DNA from: Candidatus Saccharimonadota bacterium
GTDB lineage: Bacteria; Patescibacteriota; Gracilibacteria; BD1-5; UBA2023
Direction of reading: 5' to 3'
Assembly (NCBI GenBank): GCA_046350815.1
Contig: JAXLZO010000001.1
Span: 60,001-92,000 of the forward strand
Length of the DNA: 32,000 bases
A program made the position numbers and the translations under genes. This document shows positions 3,818-19,783 of the stretch, piece by piece. Within the stretch, counting starts at the first letter, position 1. Every line of letters starts with the position of its first letter. Under the pieces are notes generated by a model. That model had not been told where the DNA came from, ran no database searches, and saw only the letters and a program-made list of their open reading frames with translations.

Positions 3818-4510
3818 ATGATCAGTAAAACTACCTATAGGAAAAAATCACGAATTTGAGATGCAAAAATAAGAGAAATTGTGAAATATTTTTCTCTGGA
3901 TTTTACTTCAGATAAAACAGCGGTATTAACAGGTCTCAATCCAAAAACAACACAGGATTGGTATAGATATATCAGAAAGGCGATAGCCTTTCTCTGTGAG
4001 AGAGAAAAGAATGAAATATGGACTGGAAATGTTGAGATAGATGAGAGTTACTTCTGACCAACAAGAGTCCGATGAAAGAGAGGAAGGTGAGCTGGTATGA
4101 AGACAATAGTCTTTGGTTTACTCAAAAGAAACTGAAAAGTATATACTGAGATAGTTCCTGATGTAAAAGCAAGGACTCTCGTGCCAATCATTCGATGAAA
4201 ACTTCGTATAGAAGAGTCTGAGATTAACAGTGATGGATGGTGAGCTTATGATGGGCTTGTAGATATTGGATATGAGAAACACTACCGTGTTCATCACGGA
4301 GCAAATGAATTTGCAAGATGAACTCAACACATTAATTGAATAGAGTCATTTTGGAGTTATACCAAAAGAAGACTCTCTCAATTCAATGGAATCAAGAAAG
4401 TCTACTTCTACTATTTTTTGAAAGAATCTGAATTCAGATATAATTGTCGTATTCAATGAAAAGATATTTATAAGGAAGTGCTAAAGTTACTTCGTCAATA
4501 TAACCCGTAA
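3818..4510 (+). CDS. IS1595-family (ISXO2-like DDE) transposase, 230 aa
   Basis: Table-25 reading gives ...VEIDESYFGPTRVRGKRGRGAGMKTIVFGLLKRNGKVYTEIVPDVKARTLVPII...SDGWGAYDGL...HHGANEFARGTQHINGIESFWSYTKRRL...YFLKESEFRYN, the DDE_Tnp_IS1595 signature. Ten in-frame TGA. Stop TAA 4508-4510. Confidence 0.85.
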
Positions 4511-7891: not shown

Positions 7892-9133
7892 TTATCTAGC
7901 ATTGTCGGGTATTTTATAACGAGAAGGAGGAAGAGTGGTAAGTGCAAAAATGAAAATAATCCAATGACTCACACTCGCAATATTCAGACTGAAAAAAAGA
8001 AGAAACAAAATCATCACTTCACGCTGCCAAGGAGCCTGCATATTGCAAAATGAACGCACAAGAATGAAGAGGAAAACAGTAAATCAAACAACTCAAAAAC
8101 TGAAGAATATATCGAGGAAAATATTGTGAAAACTATGAATGGATCATCCTTCTTGGATATATGGAAGCAGGGATGCGACAGGATGGTCAGAGAGAACGAG
8201 ATCCAACGTATCTGGTCAATGTCCTATAAAGAAATGAAGTGAACTATCACTCGAGAGTACTATTCCCGCTTGCCACAAGTCAAACCTCGTCATGAAATTT
8301 CACACCTTTCATGGAAACAAAGAAATACCTACAAAAAAAGAGACAAAGAGAAGAACACTAGCACTATATCCAATCCAACGCTGATCTGAACGCAACATAT
8401 GATATCATCGATAGATGCCATATCAGACAGATAAGACAATCGCCGTCAGGCTCTGTGTGAGGAGAAGCAAGCTCAAGAGCATACATACAATAATGCATCG
8501 ATACCACGGAGAGAACGAAGAAGTAAAAACTATTGGAATCAAGAGAAGAGCATAGCCTGCAAGATAAGCAGAATTTCCAAAAGTAGCAAATACTGGATGT
8601 ACAAAAGCTGTCAAAGTATAGTTATCAAAGAGTGGATCAAGACGAAAGTATTGGATGATACTATAGAGAAAAATAGGTGGAATAGTATGTATCGTCATCC
8701 TCATAATTCTTTCATACATTGCTGGACGAAGAATATATTGCAAAATTGATCCAAAAAGAAAAAGTCACAAGAAGAACACCCCACCTTGAAGCCGTTCAGA
8801 TGATCCAATGAGTGCACCTATTGAATAGGCACTCAGTCATAGAGATAATAAAATACTCAAAGGAATAAGGAGGAAAATTGGTTTTATATGCATCTTTTTT
8901 TCTCCAAATATCATTTGCGAAACAACCAACAAACAAATACAAAGCGTAAGAGCAAGAAAAAGTACCACCTTTACGCTCTCATACGAATAAATAGGATAGA
9001 GTGGTAAATAAACGCCAAATAAATCAGTGATATGAGCAAATACCAGCGGAATAGAAACGTAAGTAACAAGAAAAATAACTCCGATGGTCTTCTCAAGAAA
9101 GGATAGTGGTGCGAGTGTATTGGGAGAGTTCAT
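7892..9133 (-). CDS. O-antigen ligase (Wzy_C) family multi-pass membrane protein
   Basis: Pieces 8837-9133 and 8423-8743 plus the downstream sequence form one frame through about 12 TGA. Contains ATFGNSAYLAGYALL, GHGPDT and IHSFHNIFLDIFFSFGVVG. Stop TAA 7892-7894 abuts the CYTH stop. Confidence 0.65.
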
Positions 9134-9272
9134 ATTTTTATAGGGTAGATAAGAATTTCTTGTATTCCATCAAACACTCTATCATTCTTGTCTGTGAGTC
9201 AGTACATATCAATGGGTTTTGCGCGATGTCATCTCCTGTGTACTCTTTTTCAAAGAAAATGCAATATAATAC

Positions 9273-9297
9273 AAAAACCTCACAAAGTGAGGCTTTT
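9273..9297 (-). terminator. Terminator (CCTCAC-aaa-GTGAGG)
   Basis: 6-bp GC-rich stem followed by a T run on the minus strand, just downstream of the stop at 9315. Confidence 0.55.
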
Positions 9298-9314
9298 GAG
9301 AGGGAAAATCAGGT

Positions 9315-9599
9315 CTAAGATGAGGGTCTATTTGGCAGATTTTGCTTTGCCTCATCCTTGATCCGATTGAGTGCTTCACTCAGCACAGCGAGACGCTTGT
9401 TATGAGTTGAAGTTTTCAACACTTCATTTTTGAAGACAGTATTGATCTTCTGGCGAACAGATTGCCACTGCTTATCCTTCCAAAGACTCACAATATCCCA
9501 AAGCATTTGATGATTTGCATCGCTCAAATGCTCAAGATCCTTTTCAAGTTCTTCGAGAATATTGGCCAAGGTGACACCATCTTGTTGTGTCTCATACAT
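9315..9599 (-). CDS. Small hypothetical protein (~94 aa), helical, TGA-free
   Basis: MYETQQDGVTLANILEELEKDLEHL... AGGAG lies 7 nt upstream of ATG 9599 (alternative ATG at 9605). Stop TAG. GC is visibly above the local background. Confidence 0.55.
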   Translation of the reverse strand: MYETQQDGVTLANILEELEKDLEHLSDANHQMLWDIVSLWKDKQWQSVRQKINTVFKNEVLKTSTHNKRLAVLSEALNRIKDEAKQNLPNRPSS

Positions 9600-9642
9600 A
9601 TCCATTCTCCTAATTTTGGATGATGATTTTATGAACAATATA

Positions 9643-9671
9643 TATTTAATCTTTTTGTGATTTCTTGTCAA
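9643..9671 (-). promoter_or_regulatory. Putative sigma70-type promoter (TTGACA-17-TAAATA)
   Basis: Consensus -35 at 9666-9671. The -10 is weaker. Confidence 0.35.
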
Positions 9672-9720
9672 ATCTATCTTAATGAGCAAATACACAAGAT
9701 GCGGTAATACGAGATATTCA

Positions 9721-9751
9721 AAAAAAGCCCTGATCAGTATTGATCAGGGCT
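9721..9751 (-). terminator. Terminator (GCCCTGATCA-gtat-TGATCAGGGC plus T6 on the minus strand)
   Basis: 10-bp perfect stem, immediately downstream of the stop at 9765. Confidence 0.75.
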
Positions 9752-9764
9752 TAGAATAAAGACA

Positions 9765-10049
9765 CTATCCTGTCGGAGAAATAGTTTTGAGCATTCGCTC
9801 AGCGCCATCATCAAGCTGCTTGTCGAGTTCGCGAATCCAATGACGAACTTTCGTCACAAACTGCAGAGCAAACTGCTCAACATATCCACGACCAAGCTTT
9901 TGATACGCAAGTTTCTGGAATTCCTCCAGAACCCACTTCGTGACAACCTTGGGCGTCTTGCATATATCAACGAAGGAACGATGCAGACCACCAAGATCAC
10001 TCTTGAAGGTTGCGGCTGTTTTTGGCTTTTTCGCCATTTTTTTCTCCAT
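9765..10049 (-). CDS. Small hypothetical basic/helical protein (~90-94 aa), TGA-free, GC-elevated
   Basis: MEKKMAKKPKTAATFKSDLGGLHRSFVDICK... A purine-rich GGTGGA/GGAG motif lies upstream of ATG 10049 (alternative ATG at 10037). A 100-nt sample counted about 47% GC. Confidence 0.55.
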   Translation of the reverse strand: MEKKMAKKPKTAATFKSDLGGLHRSFVDICKTPKVVTKWVLEEFQKLAYQKLGRGYVEQFALQFVTKVRHWIRELDKQLDDGAERMLKTISPTG

Positions 10050-10124
10050 TCCATCCACCGTTTCCGCCTTCCGATGAACAGATATTTGTGATGATTGGTT
10101 GGTGCGATTTATGCGGATCGGATG

Positions 10125-10151
10125 ATTATAGTGATAGACCTGTATTGTCAA
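10125..10151 (-). promoter_or_regulatory. Putative promoter (TTGACA-15-TATAAT)
   Basis: Both hexamers are perfect consensus. The spacer is short at 15 nt. About 70 nt upstream of the 9765-10049 CDS. Confidence 0.45.
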
Positions 10152-10295
10152 TGATTTTCAAAGAGTTCTCAACGCAAACGATATCAAAGAAAAAATATCA
10201 TTATTTTGATCTTATTGTTCTTTGATTAATCCAAGCCTTGTTCATATTACCAAAAGTACATACCTCAATATTCACTACTTGTCAAGAAGAAATAT

Positions 10296-10325
10296 TTGTC
10301 AGAGAGAGAGAGAATATGTTACAAT
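10296..10325 (+). promoter_or_regulatory. Putative promoter (TTGTCA-18-TGtTACAAT, extended -10)
   Basis: Located about 28 nt upstream of ATG 10354. A (GA)n tract fills the spacer. Confidence 0.5.
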
Positions 10326-10353
10326 TTCCACACTATATTTCTAAAATCGTAAT

Positions 10354-11493
10354 ATGTGAGGATGAGGACCAGAACAATACACACCTTCTGTAAAGGAAGA
10401 AAAAGTAAATCCAAAACCAACTGTCGAAAGTACTACGGTAGCTCAAGACGCACTAGATGCAGCAAAAACAGATACACAAAAAGATCTTACAAAACTTCAG
10501 CAAGAAATTAGCAAAGTTAAAGTAGAAAAAAATGGAGTGAGGAAGTTTACAGAAGCACTTACTTACAATCAAAATTATAAAAAACAAGTAGAACAAATTC
10601 TTGGTACACCACTATGAGAATCACGTGAGAGCACAGCAATTATAGCGGATATCGAAACACTACAAAGTAATTTAAACGTAACACCCGACGGTGCACTCGG
10701 ACCAAAAACGTTTAAGGCATTAAAGGGGGAATGGGATAAGTCAAAAGAACAAAATCCAAAACTAACTTACAAGGAATTTATAAATAATTTGATAAATAGA
10801 AAAATCGACGTTCCAACAACCCCAACCAACCCAGTTCTATTAAATGATAAACCAACCATAACAGGTTCAGTTATAACAGAGGCAGTGACAGAAACAGATC
10901 CAACAAAAGATTTAAAACTAGATAAGGATAGCAACAAAGTAATATTTGGGAATAATAGCTTTGATTTTGAATTACAGTGAGATTGGAAAACTCTTGGTAT
11001 CGACCGAGACGCATATAAAATCATAGATAACAAAAGCTCCTACGATCTCAATATCCGTTGAAAAGAAGACAATGTAAGGATTGATAAATTGGGACTAAAA
11101 GAAGCTATTAAGGATGAAAAGCAAACTATAGAGGGTACCACAATCCCAAAAAAGGGATGACTCGGTGAACCAGTGACAATCATGATCAATAAAACAGAAG
11201 GAAAAAAGGAGCTAGCAAAAAAAGAAAATAAAGCTACTGACACCGCTCCGATCAATCCTATAGCTACAAACGATAGTTCACCTAATAACATTAACATTAC
11301 TTTGTGAAATATCACATTAGATAAACAAAATACAATTCAACCAGGAATTGATACTAGGAGTTCTCTTGAACAGAATCTTTCTAACATACCGCTACATCAA
11401 GATTTTCAAGTTGATACCAATATAAGTCCAGCCTTACAAGCGCAAATAGCTATACAACCAGTACAAGACGTACTTCAAGACACGGCAACCTAA
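10354..11493 (+). CDS. Hypothetical protein (379 aa) with a peptidoglycan-binding-like segment and no signal peptide
   Basis: Starts ATG TGA GGA TGA GGA (MGGGG). Contains ADIETLQSNLNVTPDGALGPKTFKAL, which resembles the PG_binding_1 motif. Seven in-frame TGA. Includes ORF 10789-10980. Stop TAA 11491-11493. Confidence 0.55.
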
Positions 11494-11496
11494 ACA

Positions 11497-11530
11497 GAAA
11501 AGGCGACTAAAAGTCGCCTTTTTATTTTTC
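11497..11530. terminator. Bidirectional terminator (AAGGCGACT-aaa-AGTCGCCTT plus T run)
   Basis: 9-bp stem between the convergent stops at 11493 and 11542. Confidence 0.75.
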
Positions 11531-11541
11531 ACCAAATCTCC

Positions 11542-11985
11542 TTAGTCTTTGGTGTATGTCGTTATAACAGTTGAGCCCTTCTGTGCTTGAATCTTCACAA
11601 GGATATCATGCCACAAGTAAGCACCCTCTATTTGGGACACATCATGCTGCAATCCATCAATCCGATTGGGTACACCATTCATGTTATTATCATAAACAGT
11701 AATTCTCTGACCGATAGAGTGTTCTGTATTTACTACAAACCCCTCGGACATATCTTTTTCGGATTTTGAAAAAGATATTTTATCGCCATGTATGACCTGA
11801 CAAACACGGAACGGAGTACAATCCTTGTCGGGTGTGACATGAAAATTTGCTCGAATCTCCTCTATCATACGAACATTATCCGCAATGGTGCTATATACAG
11901 GATCTGTGGGTTCTACAACAAAACCCGCAACCACGATACTTGGAATCATAGCCATAACAGCTAAGATAGCAGCATGTATTTTCAT
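11542..11985 (-). CDS. Secreted hypothetical protein (147 aa), paralog of 12084-12584
   Basis: Signal peptide MKIHAAILAVMAMIPSIVVA|GF. Two Cys. Shares ITVYDNNMNGVPNRIDGL...YLWHDILVKI with its neighbour. SD-like AGAGGAAG lies 6 nt upstream of the ATG. TGA-free. Confidence 0.65.
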   Translation of the reverse strand: MKIHAAILAVMAMIPSIVVAGFVVEPTDPVYSTIADNVRMIEEIRANFHVTPDKDCTPFRVCQVIHGDKISFSKSEKDMSEGFVVNTEHSIGQRITVYDNNMNGVPNRIDGLQHDVSQIEGAYLWHDILVKIQAQKGSTVITTYTKD

Positions 11986-12051
11986 TTATCTTCCTCTTGT
12001 TGTGCCTTTTTTGGCTGGGGAAATATAGAGACATTTGAAAAATATGCAAGT

Positions 12052-12078
12052 AAAAAGAGGGTACTAACCCTCTTTTGT
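12052..12078 (-). terminator. Terminator (AGAGGGT-acta-ACCCTCT)
   Basis: 7-bp stem with a T run on the minus strand, downstream of the stop at 12084. Confidence 0.6.
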
Positions 12079-12083
12079 TCTTC

Positions 12084-12584
12084 CTAGATAGCTCCTAGCT
12101 CTTTGGAAGATAGCGGTTGAGTAGACAGACGATCTACTATACTTTTAAGAATCGCATGATAGAAGAGAATTCCATCTAATTCAGATGATTCATTGTTCAA
12201 ACCATCAATTTCTTGAGGTATTCCGTCCATGTTATCATTAAAAATAGTGATAACACCACCTGTTTTTGCTTGTTTATGTTTGATAGCGATAGCAAAGCTT
12301 TGTGGAGATTCATCGCTTGGGGCAATGAAACCTATAGAAGCCTCAGCATCAGCAAGATCAATCATACGGCAAACATCTGCAGCCACACCATCACTACCAT
12401 ATTGCAATGTACAACCATCATCAATACGAGGCTGGAGATTATTTTGAATCTCCATGATCATGCTCAAATTTTGTGCAATGATCTGGCCTGGTGGAACATT
12501 GCTCTGCAGCGGTTCTGCAGCAAATCCCGCAAAAACAATCACCGGACAGAAAAACAATATCATAGCTACAATCAGACTTTTCAT
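12084..12584 (-). CDS. Secreted hypothetical protein (166 aa), paralog of 11542-11985
   Basis: Signal peptide MKSLIVAMILFFCPVIVFA|GF. Two Cys. Contains ITIFNDNMDGIPQEIDGL...LFYHAILKSI. AGGAG lies 7 nt upstream of the ATG. TGA-free. Confidence 0.65.
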   Translation of the reverse strand: MKSLIVAMILFFCPVIVFAGFAAEPLQSNVPPGQIIAQNLSMIMEIQNNLQPRIDDGCTLQYGSDGVAADVCRMIDLADAEASIGFIAPSDESPQSFAIAIKHKQAKTGGVITIFNDNMDGIPQEIDGLNNESSELDGILFYHAILKSIVDRLSTQPLSSKELGAI

Positions 12585-12658
12585 TTCTTTTCTCCTATTT
12601 GCATACCAAAATTTGGTCCGGAGAGTATAGGAATATTTCCCAAAAAATCAAAAAATGA

Positions 12659-13375
12659 TTATTCCCCGTCTCCACTAATCAATGTACCAAAATCAAGCTC
12701 TACGTCACTCTGAGCAAACTGGTCGATATCTTCAATACGACAGACAAATATAGGTATATGTTCATCTCGGGCAAGTGCAAACGCTGATTGATCAAATATT
12801 CTCAAATTCTTCTCAATAGCTGTATCATAGCTCACTCGATTATAACGTTTTGCATCGCTATGTTTGACTGGATCACGATCATAGACCCCATCGACCTTCG
12901 TACCTTTCACCACAACATTACAATCCAGCTCGAGACCACGAAGCACTGCTGCTGAATCGGTCGTGAAGAATGGATTGCCAGTGCCACCGACACAAATAAT
13001 GGCTCGTCCTTTTTCAAGATGGCGTAGTGCTCTTCGTCGAATAAATGGCTCTGCAACCTTGTCCACTTCAATACCTGACATGATACGAGTTTGACAGCCA
13101 GCCTTCTCGATCGCATCAGAGAGAGCCACGCCGTTGATAATAGTTGCCATCATTCCCATATAATCAGCACTTGCTCGATCGATTCACTTTGCTGCTCAGC
13201 TCACTCCACGGAAAATATTCCCTCATCCTATGACGATCACGAGTTGGTTACCAGAATGTGCAATTTTTGCAACTTTTGCAGAGAGATCATGAAGAAAATC
13301 TACATCAATGCCACCATCTTGCCTACCTTGCAGTGCTTCACCAGAGAGTTTAAGGAGGAGTCGTTTGATTTTCAT
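12659..13375 (-). CDS. pyrH: UMP kinase
   Basis: MKIKRLLLKLSGEAL...LVIVIG-G-GNIFRG...GTGNPFFTTDSAAVLRG...VDGVYDRDP. Joins ORF pieces 13223-13444 and 12659-13159 through TGA. Confidence 0.9.
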
Positions 13376-13413
13376 AAAAAGAGAAAGAGAGAAAAATAAA
13401 ATCCCAAAAGGGA

Positions 13414-14013
13414 TTATCGAGTGAGCGTCAGGACCCAGAGACAAACAGAAACCACAAATGTTACCATCAGTGTGATGACGAGAGTCTTGACGAGGACATG
13501 TTCTCGTTTGAGAGAATTCTCAAGAAAAGATACTTTCTCAATCATATGATTTTTTTCTTCTTCTCACTGAGATTTTGCACTCTCGAGAAGAAATGTTGCT
13601 TTTTTATATTCAGAAATACTGATCGTATTTTTCAACTCCGTCTCAGATTGCCCAAGTCGATAGGAAAGTTCTTGGATCATTTTATCTTTTACGGCAATTT
13701 TCTCATTTGCCTGATCATAAAGCTCACGATAATTCACCATATCTCTCATAGTATGTTTTGGAGTGGAGTGGAGTGTTACAACCGCTTCATCTTGTGTATC
13801 AACATAAGAATCTGAATCACCTGTCATAATAACAAAATCCTCCTGAATACCTCCGACACGAAGACGCTCAACATCTTCATCATGTAGATAGAGTTTTTTA
13901 CCAAGTTTACGAGATCGAATCTTGTTTGACTTAATATAGCGATCAATCGATCGGGTTGATACACCGAGAAGCGTTGCAGCCTTCTCTCGATCAACAGAGT
14001 ATGTACTTTCCAT
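13414..14013 (-). CDS. HTH (excisionase/MerR-like) DNA-binding protein with coiled coil and C-terminal TM anchor (199 aa)
   Basis: LLGVSTRSIDRYIKSNKIRSRKLGKKLYLHDEDVERL at the N-terminus. ORF 13564-14013 continues through a TGA to a hydrophobic tail LVITLMVTFVVSVCLWVLTL. Stop TAA 13414-13416, followed by the hairpin AATCCC-aaaa-GGGATT. Confidence 0.55.
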
Positions 14014-14064
14014 AGATGAGATTTTAGAGAGTCTAGCAAAAAATAGGGAGAAATCAAGAAGAAG

Positions 14065-15672
14065 TTATGATCAAATGAGATCCTCCACAAACCACGGATA
14101 GAGGTGGTAGTTACGCTCATTTCGTAATTGTTCATCTCGATAGTAGCGAGTGAGCTCACACTCTGCACGAATATAATACTCGAGTTGCCCGCTCATATTT
14201 CCATCTATAAAAATGAGTTCAGTCAGATCCTTGGATCGATCGATGAGATATTCCTTGAGTTGGGCTGGAAATGGCGAGAGACGTTCGATAATGATCGCCC
14301 CATATTCTGGATGATCTTTGCAAAGTCTCTCCATAAGATATGCATTGTACCCATAGAGGATAAACATTTTTGTTGCATCCGGATTGATCGTATAGTATCC
14401 TTTCTGAGTGTAGCGTTGATTGCAATGTTCAATTCCTGAAAGCTTCTTGAATCGCTTCTCAGTCATTGCTTCTTTCATCTCAGGTTTCTCACTGGTAGCC
14501 CCATACTCATCATGCTCGTATGAAGTCGCAATAAACTCACCATTTGCCAATCATGGTATAGTATATGGTGATATTCCATCGGTCTCAGCGAGACTATAGC
14601 GAGCAAATTTTTCATCAGGATGCTCTTCAAATTTTCCACGAAAAATCGGTGCAGGTTCGAGTGATTCAGCATCCAAACTCAACATACTTTCACTAAACTG
14701 CTTATCAACCAACACAATAACTGGATGCTGCAGAGTATCGGAAATATTGAGAGCCTCTCAAATCAAAGTGTAACCACGCTCATAGGTTGATGGAGAGAGA
14801 ACTATCGGTTTTGTATCACCAAAACTCGCATTAAGTGCATAGAGTAGGTCTGATTGCTCTTGAAAGGTCGGTGTTCCGGTTGATGGTCCAGCACGTTGCG
14901 AGAGAACATAGACACCACCAATTTCTGCCTGATGAGAATACGACAGAGACTCACTCATAAGAGCAAATCATCCACCACTTGTACCACACATAGCGCGAGC
15001 ACCTGCAAATTTTGCGCCGAGCATCGCCATAGCAACAGCAATCTCATCTTCTCCTTGGATGAAGGTGATCTCTGGATGCTTGACAACTTCATCGATAAGG
15101 GTGCTTGCAGGGGTCATTGGATAGGCAGAATAAAAATTCATTCCACTCGCAAGCGCCCCTCTTACAAGTACTTCATTCCCACCTACAAATTCACGAGAAT
15201 TTGACTGATACGAACCGCCATCATAGCAAGCCTCATCGATAGATACAGCACCAGCTCTCAGTGCACTGAGATTTTCATCATTGATTGCCCAGAGTGCTGT
15301 CTTTGCGAGAAAATGTTCAAATTCCGAGAGATTCAGTCCAAGGAGAGTTATTGATTGCCCCAATAAATACATATTTTTACGCTTGTAGGGCAAAGTTTTA
15401 TCCATCACAAATGTTTTACTCAAGTCATACACTGCCTCATTCTTCGTAACACCAAAAGTATCAATCGAGAGAAAGACATCAATAGAGCGAGAGAGAGCAG
15501 GAGCATGATCTCGATCAAATGCGAGGAGGAAAAGATTATTATCCCCCTTAACGGTCGATGCATATTCACGATCTCACATAACTCTATAACCAAGATGAGA
15601 GAGATATCATCCAAGAATCACCCCAAGCGTATTAATACCCGTGCCAGCAGCACCAGAAAAAGCAATTTGCAT
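14065..15672 (-). CDS. 2-oxoacid:ferredoxin oxidoreductase, fused gamma/alpha subunit (KorA/OforA-like)
   Basis: MQIAFSGAAGTGINTLG (gamma domain). GNEVLVRGALASGMNFYSAYPMTPAS and GTSGG-G-FALMSE (alpha domain). Five ORF-track pieces share one frame. True stop TAA 14065-14067. Confidence 0.8.
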
Positions 15673-15673
15673 A

Positions 15674-15706
15674 CAAAAAAAGAGAATACACACAGTATAT
15701 TCTCTT
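15674..15706 (-). terminator. Terminator (AGAGAATA-9 nt-TATTCTCT plus T7 on the minus strand)
   Basis: Downstream of the def stop. The T run ends 2 nt before the start codon at 15672. Confidence 0.6.
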
Positions 15707-15744
15707 GTGAAATGTTTGCAAAAGGTCTTTTTTAGTAGAGCAAA

Positions 15745-16242
15745 CTATAGCATTGGCTGTGGGGATTCATCCAACTTATCCACAAAAAGTATCCCATCAA
15801 GATGATCAATCTCATGCATCACCACACGAGCCGCAAATCCAGTAAGTTTGATTTTCTGAGATTTAAAATTCTCATCAAGATAGTGAAGTACGATCCAAGT
15901 AGAGCGAACAACGATTCATTTCTCTCACGGCACCGAGAAGCATGCCTCTTCTTCACGACACATTTCATTACTAGCTTCCACAATACATGGATTGATCATA
16001 CCAGCAACTCGACGAATTTCATATCCATCCGGCGTTTCAGTACCGAGCGCACAAGCAATAACTCGGAGATTCACACCGGTTTGAGGGGCAGCAAGACCAA
16101 CGGCGGTATCGTTAGATTTGACCCAATCGACAAGTTCTCTTGCGAGTATTTGAGCTTGCTTTTGTGTTGTTGAATCAACAAGAGTGCTTACCACACGCAA
16201 TATTTGATTATCGCGACCGGTTTGGATAGAACGATTCATCAT
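15745..16242 (-). CDS. def: Peptide deformylase
   Basis: GLAAPQTG, EACFSVPGEKG and HEIDHLDGILF motifs. Two in-frame TGA. Stop TAG 15745-15747. Confidence 0.9.
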
Positions 16243-16279
16243 AGAGAAAAGAGAAGAGTATAAATTATATAAGTAATCA

Positions 16280-16320
16280 AAAAAGCACAAAAGAAAAACA
16301 CTGGACCGAAGTCCAGTGTT
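16280..16320 (-). terminator. Strong terminator (AACACTGGAC-cgaa-GTCCAGTGTT, UUCG loop on the transcript, long T run)
   Basis: 10-bp perfect stem, 27 nt downstream of the stop at 16347. Confidence 0.8.
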
Positions 16321-16346
16321 GGTATCGCACCGCCTCCACGGCACGA

Positions 16347-17669
16347 CTATTTTTGATGATTACGTATGCGGGTAAACTCAGCGATCAAGGCGTCCAGTTG
16401 CACAACCTGATCTTGGGACAACTGTGGTATAGCAGCTGCTTCGATTTCTGCGATTTGAGCCTGCAACTGATTTTGTTGAACACCAGATTGCTCCAGATCC
16501 AAACTCGACTTTTCCACAGCCCCTTGCAGGGTTTGTACTTCTTCACGGGCCGTAAGCAATTGCTGCTCAAGTTCATCGACCTTAGCATGTGCTAAGGTCA
16601 GATTTTGCTGTTGTTGAACAAGGAGGGCTTGAACCTCCCCTTCAAAAAGCTTGGCTTTTTGAAGCTGATCCTGCAGATCATGCAGGATCGGGTCAGCTTC
16701 ACGACTTTTTTGAACCGAGCCGAACAGGGCAGCTGCTAAGCTGTTTGAGAGGCTTGGTGGCGTTGGCTTCTCTTTCACGATATTTTCCTCCTCCGCTACA
16801 GCGGAACCAATAATTCGATCTAATTTCGGCTCATAGTGAACCAATTTGCTAATAGGCTGATCCGCCTCCTCATCAGACGGACCCTCTTCAGCTGCACGGA
16901 TTTCGGCCGCAATCGCTTCAAGAGCAACCACTTCCTCCAGACGAATACCGAGGAGATCTTTATCGATCTTCCCATCGGCTGTAACGAGCCCCTGAATTGT
17001 ACACCAGTGATGGCGACACAACTCCAGATTCTCACCAACCTGTGGAAAAACACTAAGGATCATGCTGTTGACGCCTCGAGTGCACACTTCGCTTTTCAGC
17101 TTTGCATACTCACTCAATGCCACGATGAACCGGCGTGCCAGGGGATGATCAGGATGAGCAACACAATCTTGAGAGATTTCATGTGGCTTACGCTGCATGA
17201 GCTGCTCACGTTCAGCATGAGTGTTGGGTACCCACGTATCACAAAGCAGATCCATAACCTGGTTACTCTTGTTTGTCAGAGCATTCCTGAGGAGTTGTAA
17301 TACCCCTTCATCCCCCCGAAAGAACAGTACTGAATCAGTACGCTCCCCAGCAAGCACCAAAAACTCCGCGGGAGTGGTCTCAGTAGCAATAGTAACTGCA
17401 ACAGGGTTGTTACGATTTACCCAGAGTTTCCCACGCCCATCCTTGGAAGACCGGGCATTCCGAATAACCGTCAGGTCCATCTGCTGCGACCCCGGGATCT
17501 CATCCAGAAGATCGGAAATTTGCTGGTGCAAAAGCCGGTTCTCCTCAAAGAGTTTCCAGAAGAAGTTCCCAATCGCGCGGATTGGGTTTCGAAGTTCGAG
17601 CACGGATCCACTATGCGGACCCACTAACTGCAATTTTTCCCACACTTGTGGGCTTTGCGCTATTCCCAT
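16347..17669 (-). CDS. Hypothetical protein (440 aa): globular N-terminal part, acidic linker, Q/L/E-rich C-terminal coiled coil. GC-rich and TGA-free.
   Basis: Uninterrupted even in the standard code. GGAGG at 17675-17679, 5 nt upstream of ATG 17669. A 100-nt sample counted about 49% GC, against about 37% in the adjacent gene. Has its own promoter and terminator. Confidence 0.75.
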   Translation of the reverse strand: MGIAQSPQVWEKLQLVGPHSGSVLELRNPIRAIGNFFWKLFEENRLLHQQISDLLDEIPGSQQMDLTVIRNARSSKDGRGKLWVNRNNPVAVTIATETTPAEFLVLAGERTDSVLFFRGDEGVLQLLRNALTNKSNQVMDLLCDTWVPNTHAEREQLMQRKPHEISQDCVAHPDHPLARRFIVALSEYAKLKSEVCTRGVNSMILSVFPQVGENLELCRHHWCTIQGLVTADGKIDKDLLGIRLEEVVALEAIAAEIRAAEEGPSDEEADQPISKLVHYEPKLDRIIGSAVAEEENIVKEKPTPPSLSNSLAAALFGSVQKSREADPILHDLQDQLQKAKLFEGEVQALLVQQQQNLTLAHAKVDELEQQLLTAREEVQTLQGAVEKSSLDLEQSGVQQNQLQAQIAEIEAAAIPQLSQDQVVQLDALIAEFTRIRNHQK

Positions 17670-17762
17670 GATTGCCTCCAAGGCGTAATGGTTGTCTTGT
17701 TATAAATCCTGTTGTATGTAAATTACTAAGAGAAAATCCTAGCAACCCACACCAACAAGATC

Positions 17763-17790
17763 ACTATATATAAATATAATTACTTGTCAA
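17763..17790 (-). promoter_or_regulatory. Putative promoter (TTGACA-16-TATAGT)
   Basis: The -35 lies inside the last codons of the upstream 667-aa gene. Predicts an ~85-nt leader for the 440-aa gene. Confidence 0.5.
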
Positions 17791-19783
17791 TATCTTCATG
17801 ATATATTCCTGCATCACGGAGATTTTGAAGATAGAGCTGACATGCTTGCTTTGAGCTTCGCAATGATTTTTGTTTTGATTGAGCGTATTTCTCAACAAGA
17901 GTATAGAGCGATTTGAATGTCTGATAAAAATCCGCCCTGTAGAATAATCCTGGAATATGCGAAAGAGGCGAATCTTCATGCTCAAGTATTTCAAACAGAT
18001 TCTGATTGATTTTATCGGATCGATTGTGTGGATTCATTTGATGATCCTGTTTTCTTAGCAGATAAATCTCTCGCCAAGAAAATTCTGTAGTTTCAGACAA
18101 TATTTTTCCCTCTTCAATTTTTTGAATGAAAAAATAGAGAAAATTGCGCATAGCATCACTCGTTCGACCATCACCTTTGCTGTCATTTTTGTCAAAAGTA
18201 GAACTTATAAACAGCTTTTGGACCATTTTGATGTGTGCAATATATTCTTTCTGTAGATCGGTTAATACCATCGATTCCTCAATATCCAAAGAATCATTAA
18301 AAAGAGAATTCTGGGCAGGATGATGTGGATCACGATTTTTATGGGCCCATTTTCTTTGTTCATCCATGACGTGAAGCTCCTCCTTTAACCTATGAATCAT
18401 CTCCGTTATCTGATGTGCCTCATCTATAATCTGATTAATCACTTGAACCTGTGCTATAGTTTGTTGTTGTTTGTTCTTAAGAATATCAAGATCATGTTCT
18501 ATACCGTCTTCTATAGCTTGAAGATCTGCGAGTGCATGGATTTTCTTTGTTTTTTCCACGCTATGACATCGAACGCGGCGTTTATCCATATTTTTTACGA
18601 TCTTTGCAATTTCGATATCAGTTGAGGTCTTTGTAGATGTTACCAATACATCTACTTCATTCGATACTGGTCACACCATCATCGCATGAGAATGTAGTGG
18701 TAATTTCTGATTAGTATCTCAAATTTGCTCTCTAACAAATGCTTCAGCTTTATTTTGAATATCTTCCCATTCAATCATGGTTTGGAAAAAATCGAGAAAA
18801 AAATGATGATCATGAAGATTATCTGGAATATCCGGAAGATGCTTAATAGAATCTTTGAATGTCTTAATCGAATCACGAAAATATTGCTTTTTAACCGGGT
18901 CAACAATTCTATGATGAAGTACTTTGTATGTATCGATTTTTTTACTAATAGCCACTTCCCTTGCGTGAGCACATACAATCATTTCTTTTATAACCAAAAG
19001 TAATACGGCATCATATGCCCTGGTAAGTAACATGTCACTTACAAAATCGTCACGTTGCTTATCTGAAAGATCATCCCAAAATGGAAGTGGTTGATACGGT
19101 TCTGGTAATTCAGCTGGTTCTGATGTTTCTGATATATCAGACAATTCTCATAATCATTTTTCTCTCTGGCTCCAATGACGCAATTGCTCAAGAGAGTACT
19201 TCATTTGAACGAAATATTTAAACCATTTTTCAAATGTCTCATCAGAAAAATCATTTTTTGGTAATTGATTTTTTTGCCAAATAACACTTTGAAGAGGATC
19301 TCGATGAAAATGAGCCGCAAAACTCAACATCTCTGAGTGGTAAAAAATCTTGGAAAAAACAGATTCATGCGTATCAAAAATAATAAAAAGATAATGATAC
19401 ATGATGAAGCGTAATTCAGCCGATTCTATGTCTCATTCACTATTATCAAGTAAGCCTATCGAGTGAATCGCTCGAAGCGTAAATTCATACCACATACGTA
19501 TCCTTGGACGAAGTCATTCAAGAAACTTATCAAAAGAATGTTGTGAAATCCTCGTAATAGCATCAAGAGACTCCTGTGAAAGTAATCTAGGAGGTAATTT
19601 CTCTTCCTGTCCCTTTGTAGTATCTTGAAGATCATTTTGCTCAAGGATACCATGAGTCTGTTGAGATGTTCCAGATTGGATTTTTTGCCACTGATCAACA
19701 AATTCCCAAAGAGGTATATGGTCATCCGGTATACCTTCTCTTCATGAGAAATCATCAGGCTTTATGAAATTTTGCTGAGACAT
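17780..19783 (-). CDS. Large hypothetical protein (667 aa), no recognised domain
   Basis: Standard-code ORFs 17780-18646, 18719-19144 and 19154-19402, plus upstream sequence to ATG 19783, are all in one frame. They are joined only by 7 TGA codons, with no TAA/TAG over 2004 nt. Starts 13 nt after the pilB stop. Confidence 0.7.

Follow-up and report, generated by a model that had tools for sequence, protein, structure and literature searches.

The window analysed here, a stretch of 32,000 nt, corresponds to bases 60001–92000 of the complete 1,283,673-bp genome (GC 38.9%) of a Candidatus Saccharimonadota bacterium from the Gracilibacteria, in which TGA is a sense codon for glycine. Five genes between positions 9315 and 17669, all on the minus strand, stand out from their surroundings: each is led by a Shine–Dalgarno (SD) motif and none uses TGA in frame. 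The original prediction, made from the letters and their open reading frames (ORFs), drew attention to this coupling and proposed that it could mark either horizontally acquired genes or a dedicated high-expression class. The five are laid out as single-gene cassettes, listed here in window coordinates together with the native genes interleaved among them.

Cassette 1, 9272–9611, minus strand: SD AGGAGA at 9611–9606, 6 nt from the ATG; ORF 9599–9315; terminator 9298–9272.
Cassette 2, 9725–10151, minus strand: promoter-like TTGACA-18-AATCAT at 10151–10122; SD GGAGA at 10047–10043; ORF to 9765; terminator 9752–9725.
Cassette 3, 11497–11996, minus strand: SD-like GAGGA at 11996–11992, 6 nt from the ATG; ORF 11985–11542; terminator hairpin 11523–11497.
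Cassette 4, 12053–12651, minus strand: weak promoter-like site at 12651–12624; SD AGGAGA at 12596–12591, 6 nt from the ATG; ORF 12584–12084; terminator 12076–12053.
Cassette 5 (gene 5), 16297–17790, minus strand: promoter TTGACA-16-TATAGT at 17790–17763; SD GGAGG at 17679–17675, 5 nt from the ATG; ORF 17669–16347; terminator 16320–16297.
Interleaved native genes, 12659–16344, minus strand: pyrH-like kinase, helix–turn–helix protein, OFOR subunit and def; SD-less, T at position −1, TGA used; an internal contrast to the cassettes.

The anatomy and codon usage first read from the sequence were borne out. In each gene the SD motif lies 5–6 nt from an ATG. The SD-led ATG of the second gene is at 10037, 5 nt from GGAGA, and the start at 10049 is an in-frame ATG 4 codons (12 nt) further upstream. 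The monocistronic layout also holds, with an intrinsic terminator of its own behind each of the five genes and a near-consensus promoter at gene 5. The claimed absence of TGA from about 940 codons comes to 0 of 941 codons and 0 of 48 glycine codons, against 15.1 expected from the per-codon rate or 11.2 from the glycine share (P(0) ~3 × 10−6). The same genes contain 78 off-frame TGA, and the depletion is therefore specific to the reading frame. Their native neighbours (pyrH, OFOR, def, murE, the T2SSE ATPase and others) are SD-less and TGA-using, as had been claimed, with no SD pairing below −6 kcal/mol, 1–11 TGA each and T at −1. At the first-ATG starts of the five genes, the base at −1 is A, A, A, A and C; at the SD-led ATG 9599 of gene 1 it is T. 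Five such genes within 8.4 kb compares with ~0.23 expected from the genome-wide density, and they are flanked by pyrH, OFOR, def, murE and genes for pili rather than lying within a prophage.

No function could be assigned to any of the five by Pfam, PHROG, structure and ESM Atlas searches, and none has a PHROG hit below E 0.05. Cassette 1 encodes a helical protein of 94 aa with a single glycine (stop TAG), with no Pfam or PHROG family and with ESM Atlas scores all below 0.9; cassette 2 encodes 90 aa from 10037 or 94 aa from 10049 (stop TAG) and has no Pfam family. Cassettes 3 and 4 are tandem paralogues (31% identity, E = 1 × 10−16), each with a predicted signal peptide. The product of cassette 3 has 147 aa and two cysteines, its gene ending in TAA and following the weaker SD match GAGGA; that of cassette 4 has 166 aa (stop TAG), and its predicted model (pLDDT 65) matched no PDB fold at E ≤ 0.001. 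Gene 5 encodes 440 aa with a C-terminal coiled coil (GC 49.7%, about half of its glycine codons GGG, stop TAG), and its predicted model (pLDDT 55) was too poor for a fold search.

Annotation of the genome with table 25 gives 1,158 genes at a coding density of 86%, with 6,088 in-frame TGA, equal to 1.6% of all codons and 23% of those for glycine. The genome encodes tRNA-Gly(UCA) and a sole class-I release factor carrying the RF1-type PxT motif (PET); RF2 was not found in the genome, and transfer-messenger RNA (tmRNA) and SmpB are both encoded. Both 16S rRNA copies terminate in ...GGACUAUCUCCUUUC, with an anti-SD core of UCUCC instead of CCUCC, for which the ideal SD is AAAGGAGAUAG; because the core is UCUCC, AGGAGA is a perfect match. 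The 16S tail CUAUCUCCUUU is kept in three genomes, this one and two relatives. Genome-wide, a GGAG peak at −12 to −10 appears in only ~3% of gene starts.

Comparison was made with two further genomes, G020, which belongs to a different genus of the same family (1.27 Mb, GC 43.5%), and G027, which represents another family within the order (GC 35%, 0.37 of glycine codons TGA). A strong start context was noted, with T at −1 in 67–69% of genes in both the studied genome and G027, native examples in the window being the starts at 13375, 15672 and 16242, and the SD-led cassettes are mostly without it. At this position G020 has T in 44% and C in 32% of genes.

To score SD strength across the genome, starts were fixed at the first ATG without regard to SD motifs, and positions −19 to −3 were scored for pairing with the genome's own 16S tail. 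The share of glycine codons that are TGA is 0.076 at ΔG ≤ −9, then 0.17, 0.18 and 0.20 as SD strength declines, with a baseline of 0.24–0.27. In a quasi-binomial model controlled for length, GC content at third codon positions (GC3) and coding score, the odds ratio is 0.53 (P = 3 × 10−5), and it is 0.54 when the window genes are left out. Length-matched resampling reached the observed deficit in 0 of 5,000 draws (P < 2 × 10−4). The association is real genome-wide, contrary to the outcome that would have refuted the original prediction. It is restricted to true 5′ SD sites: 36 SD-like decoys within genes have a TGA share of 0.375, only 2 are open in code 11, the standard code, and there is no TGA depletion among them. 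An SD-aware choice of starts over 50 codons was dropped, its matches being mostly chance, and SD-blind first ATGs with decoys were used instead. The base that follows GGAG (A in 18 cases, G in 11) shows no clear difference from the intergenic background and is therefore uninformative on tuning to the altered anti-SD.

A class spread over the genome includes the five genes. Defining this class as SD-led genes preceded by 50 nt or more of intergenic sequence gives 38 genes. In 30 of them 80% or more of the length is open in code 11, compared with 11.8 expected from their own glycine positions; a count of 30 was reached in 0 of 200,000 simulations. Twenty-four of the 30 are TGA-free, and the other 6 have TGA in the last fifth of the ORF only. 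In-frame TGA in the class amounts to 0 in 4,361 codons, compared with rates per codon of 0.032 and 0.042 when its two other frames are read and of 0.016 elsewhere. The first code-11 stop among the 30 is TAA in 17, TAG in 7 and TGA in 6. In four of these six terminal-TGA genes, an intrinsic terminator hairpin falls between the TGA and the next TAA or TAG; in a fifth, TAA comes two codons later and is followed by the terminator. SD-led genes with this order, in which the first in-frame TGA and then a terminator hairpin precede TAA or TAG, lie at genome positions 519804–520169, 1028783–1029253, 1155047–1155598 and 1195842–1196300. Such cassettes should give read-through or non-stop products in this cell. 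The 8 of the 38 genes with dispersed TGA include a W/Y-family class I tRNA synthetase, a family A DNA polymerase, CysRS and a class IV aminotransferase, and the SD match of such housekeeping genes is probably due to chance.

Several properties set the class apart from controls. The median length of its 30 members is 121 aa. Nearly all are without a Pfam family (the exceptions being a GC3-rich dihydroorotate (DHO)-dehydrogenase-like gene and a DnaJ-domain protein), and cassettes 3 and 4 are the only paralogues among them. Promoters that agree with the sigma-70 consensus at 10 or more of 12 positions precede 50% of the class and 16% of controls, and a terminator lies within 90 nt in 67–71% against 28–30%. 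T occupies −1 in 12 of 30 class genes compared with 433 of 605 controls. The class has a higher GC3 (0.378 against 0.322, P = 5 × 10−5) and a lower coding score (0.107 against 0.163, P = 1 × 10−5); the lower coding score is found in G020 and G027 too, and the GC3 difference is not found in G020. The cassettes have no flanking repeats, the class shows neither membrane-protein enrichment nor general physical clustering, and no multi-gene foreign block free of TGA occurs anywhere in the genome. The clearest candidate for an imported gene encoding an enzyme is the following.

pyrD-like (DHO-dehydrogenase-like) cassette, locus L018, genome 758762–759754, minus strand: SD-led, GC3 0.58, 32 glycine codons, 0 TGA.

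Matches of this cassette to plasmids are distant (23–28% identity) and its 35 homologues are metagenome proteins, from which no donor could be inferred.

The window also holds, at 3818–4510, one copy of a 30-member family of transposase-like paralogues (median 230 aa) that uses TGA for 44% of its glycines. With about twice the genome average of TGA, this mobile element can be read in code 25 only, in contrast to the cassettes. It is also the probable cause of an AGGA peak that ~2% of gene starts show at −29.

A second genus reproduces the class, and a third genome does so weakly. In G020, 34 of 45 SD-led genes are open in code 11, compared with 18.4 expected and no simulation above 31. Terminal TGA occurs there in 18% of SD-led genes against 4% of other genes; TGA is the first stop in 8 of the 34, with TAA or TAG shortly behind, and in five terminal-TGA genes (at 152568, 190237, 496780, 873659 and 907454) a terminator precedes the next true stop. 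In both genera an SD-led cassette sits just 3′ of pyrH (window 12084–12584 and G020 9867–10517), and the two are not homologous, which suggests that this site is a recurrent insertion spot.

The distribution of the class is narrow. G020 holds a homologue of 2 of the 30 class genes (7%), compared with 162 of 385 controls (42%, P = 6 × 10−5), and three G027 cassettes have no homologue in two genomes of the same genus and three of the same family. Gene 5 was not found in 40 related species genomes; its orthologues are in metagenomes, at 58–93% identity, and the eight homologues of cassette 4 (68–95% identity) are likewise all metagenomic. A metagenome scan returned one short orthologue only. In the gene 5 orthologue of metagenome locus L002 (81% amino-acid identity), the arrangement GGAGG-5-ATG is kept though the flanks of the motif have changed, and there are 0 TGA. 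The pair has a dN/dS of 0.19 at a dS of 0.58, and gene 5 is thus a genuine gene under purifying selection rather than debris. Roughly 14 DNA runs contain the region, as do wastewater and sludge metatranscriptomes; six metatranscriptome runs contain 9–14% of the words of window 9000–18000 taken as a whole, and such shares, below 0.2, were not used as evidence.

A native gene outside the window bears directly on whether SD-led initiation and glycine decoding of TGA are compatible.

rpsU (bS21) homologue, 66 aa, genome 352716–352916, plus strand (loci L008, L114–L143): SD GGGAGAUAGGAG, ΔG −14.0.

This SD is the strongest among the SD-blind first-ATG starts of the genome (one cassette reaches ΔG −16.1 when starts are chosen by SD), and the SD of G020 rpsU, at −15.6, is again the strongest among SD-blind starts there, in front of a protein of 66–67 aa. 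An extended SD (ΔG ≤ −9), complementary to the altered 16S tail, lies upstream of rpsU in 19 of 30 relatives and has been lost from one subclade. The identification as bS21 rests on PDB matches with E of 0.0015–0.28, all of them to bS21 and the best to the Flavobacterium johnsoniae protein; the homologue scores below the Pfam threshold. In-frame TGA was listed by the search in rpsU of four relatives (G025, G027, G035 and G037), and of these the G027 and G035 genes were translated, the TGA of the latter falling on the conserved glycine of KEGE. SD-led initiation and decoding of TGA as glycine thus coexist in one native gene. This speaks against the two being inherently incompatible, and against a stop function of TGA in SD-led mRNAs. 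A mechanistic coupling between SD use and TGA avoidance is not supported by this observation, which points instead to a shared origin.

Our preferred interpretation, to which we give a probability of about 0.58, is that the five genes are part of a scattered class of some 30–35 single-gene cassettes (~3% of genes) drawn from a mobile, fast-turnover pool that is readable in code 11. It starts from the cassette anatomy, the genome-wide statistics and their replication (weak in G027), the narrow phyletic range, the atypical composition and the ability of SD-led genes to carry TGA as glycine. Each cassette consists of promoter, SD, ORF and terminator and would be read alike by standard-code cells and by cells in which TGA means glycine, with no TGA inside the ORF and at times TGA as the last codon ahead of the terminator. 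The source pool would have stayed, or arisen, readable in code 11, and SD use and TGA avoidance would coincide because both stem from this one source, presumably mobile elements or phages. The retained anti-SD would then let the ribosomes of this cell translate the cassettes, and some, such as gene 5, would persist as working genes. Of the two origins first proposed, the horizontal or mobile one thus fits, given the atypical codon score and GC3, the 2 of 30 genes with a G020 homologue and the private promoters and terminators; the high-expression class does not, as set out below.

Several observations weigh against this interpretation. There is no integrase, flanking repeat or prophage context around the five genes, and searches for a donor of gene 5 and cassette 4 found no relatives in IMG/VR viral contigs, GenBank phages or 185,579 species genomes; their known homologues are confined to a few metagenome contigs, at 58–95% identity. 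The SDs of two cassettes extend their match to AUAG, a lineage-specific stretch of the anti-SD, which suggests tuning to their own lineage rather than to ordinary bacteria. The fact that gene 5 has persisted through a dS of 0.58 without losing its SD or gaining TGA, and the fact that paralogues 3 and 4 are both still SD-led and TGA-free at their present divergence, could mean that selection upholds this state. Finally, the class is very small in G027 (about 0.5%), where 5 code-11-open genes compare with an expectation of 2.0 (P = 0.017) and there is no overall effect on the TGA share of glycine codons.

The main rival to shared origin follows from these last points: selection may actively uphold code neutrality in long-resident cassettes, purging in-frame TGA and keeping the SD. 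The reason could be a need to work also in standard-code cells, through shuttling between the episymbiont and its hosts by phages or DNA uptake, or a need to be made when decoding by tRNA-Gly(UCA) is compromised, and translation of the cassettes may fall to a ribosome subpopulation whose anti-SD is free. In keeping with such selection, the gene 5 pair combines a low dN/dS with a conserved SD core between changed flanks and with 0 TGA in either copy, its synonymous glycine changes are among GGN codons only, and paralogues 3 and 4 have 20 glycine codons between them without a TGA; the extended rpsU SD in relatives, as in Bacteroidia (PMC9976891), also fits. However, gene 5 has just 2–4 GGA codons, so that few gains of TGA are expected anyway, about 20% of the cassettes end in TGA followed by a terminator and hence are not tuned to this host, and turnover is very high, with 2 of 30 genes common to both genera and 0 of 3 within a genus. 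We regard this explanation as unlikely, though it is the competitor to be taken most seriously. Also on the doubtful side is the broader proposal of a standing chromosomal gene set held by selection in a form readable in both codes, SD-led, without internal TGA and sometimes TGA-ending. Such genes could conceivably move between standard-code cells and cells with TGA as glycine, or depend for correct expression on conditions that alter the reading of TGA, such as a standard-code phage infection; in this second case the TGA-ended cassettes would give proper products only then.

It is improbable that the cassettes form a dedicated high-expression class in which the SD boosts initiation and TGA is shunned as a slow or rare codon. 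Presumed high expressers do avoid TGA, which accounts for 1 of 95 glycine codons in rpoB, 0 of 56 in EF-G, 0 of 39 in EF-Tu and 0 of 51 in DnaK; a DEAD-box helicase, BipA and ribosomal-protein operons are also among the most TGA-poor, and the cassettes have strong promoters. All of these TGA-poor conserved genes, however, are SD-less and codon-adapted, and there are therefore two unrelated TGA-poor populations. In codon-usage space the reference conserved set lies at +0.36 on the second principal component with a coding score of 0.247, whereas the cassettes lie near the bulk, at +0.08 with a score of 0.106. Nor are the cassettes conserved, and a terminal TGA followed by a terminator would be left unexplained. 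The clean division into two gene classes that had been suggested likewise breaks down, because most of the 180 TGA-free genes in the genome are SD-less.

More improbable still is that TGA has two meanings, acting as a true stop in SD-led mRNAs and hence being unusable inside them. Nine SD-led genes in the two genomes have a terminator hairpin between the first in-frame TGA and the next TAA or TAG, as this would predict, but the single RF1-type release factor, the lack of a detected RF2 and the presence of tRNA-Gly(UCA) speak against it, as does the TGA at a conserved glycine in the SD-led rpsU of a relative, and tmRNA and SmpB could clear the non-stop products. Chance or a gene-calling artefact is hardly credible: 47% of SD-less genes of 80–110 codons are TGA-free and about half of raw GGAG matches at first ATGs are expected by chance, but short ORFs and random SD-like strings are rejected as the cause by the length-matched, glycine-position-based and decoy controls and by replication in a second genome.

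Stop-codon reassignment is usually viewed as a barrier that isolates a lineage genetically. Under the favoured interpretation of a code-11-readable pool, about 3% of chromosomal genes, here and in a second genus, ignore this barrier, carrying universal expression signals and nothing that is readable by the altered code alone. The combination of an SD, no in-frame TGA and a private terminator would give a simple signature for the accessory or imported gene pool of Gracilibacteria, would tie chromosomal content to known code-11-compatible phages and would offer a natural test case for the fate of foreign TGA stops in recoded cells. The literature searched contains no description of this chromosomal class or of the rpsU SD in this lineage.

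The closest parallel is with phages. Of 38 predicted Gracilibacteria phages, 34 are compatible with code 11 and lack in-frame TGA, whereas integrated prophages were reported as code-25 only, and SD use was not described (Liu et al. 2023, mBio, PMC10746230). As in the cassettes, genes associated with a TGA-as-glycine host are without in-frame TGA and have the same reading in both codes, and different stops lie close together at gene ends; this second feature is found here in 6 of 30 genes and in G020 in 8 of 34, the five window genes themselves ending in TAG or TAA. Unlike the phage genes, the cassettes are single chromosomal units among housekeeping genes; phage genes are absent, and the viral collections searched contain no homologues. 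Phage morons and the horizontally transferred genes of recoded bacteria of the candidate phyla radiation (CPR) resemble the cassettes as autonomous promoter–ORF–terminator units of atypical composition and narrow distribution. In Vampirococcus, with 126 horizontally transferred genes, foreign UGA stops are predicted to be read through (PMC8080830), that is, to become glycine codons, as would those of the TGA-ended cassettes. The cassettes differ from both in having no prophage context and no identified donor, and at least one of them, gene 5, is old and selected within its genus-level clade. Translational selection offers a partial likeness, since rpoB, EF-G, EF-Tu, DnaK and ribosomal-protein operons are strongly TGA-poor here, but the class it shapes is SD-less, conserved and codon-adapted, and the five window genes are none of these.

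The last comparison concerns the ribosome. In Bacteroidia, the anti-SD is concealed by bS21, bS18 and bS6, and an extended SD mediates the autoregulation of rpsU (PMC7797042, PMC9976891, PMC13000453); ribosomes free of bS21 read SD mRNAs there, and the extended rpsU SD is a hallmark of the system (PMC9976891). The genome studied here is similarly almost free of SDs yet retains its anti-SD, with rpsU carrying the strongest extended SD. It belongs to another phylum and has the altered core UCUCC, and, whereas in F. johnsoniae essentially rpsU alone has an SD, ~30 further genes do so here. By analogy, SD-blind ribosomes of the Bacteroidia type, with autoregulation of bS21, may also operate in this CPR lineage.

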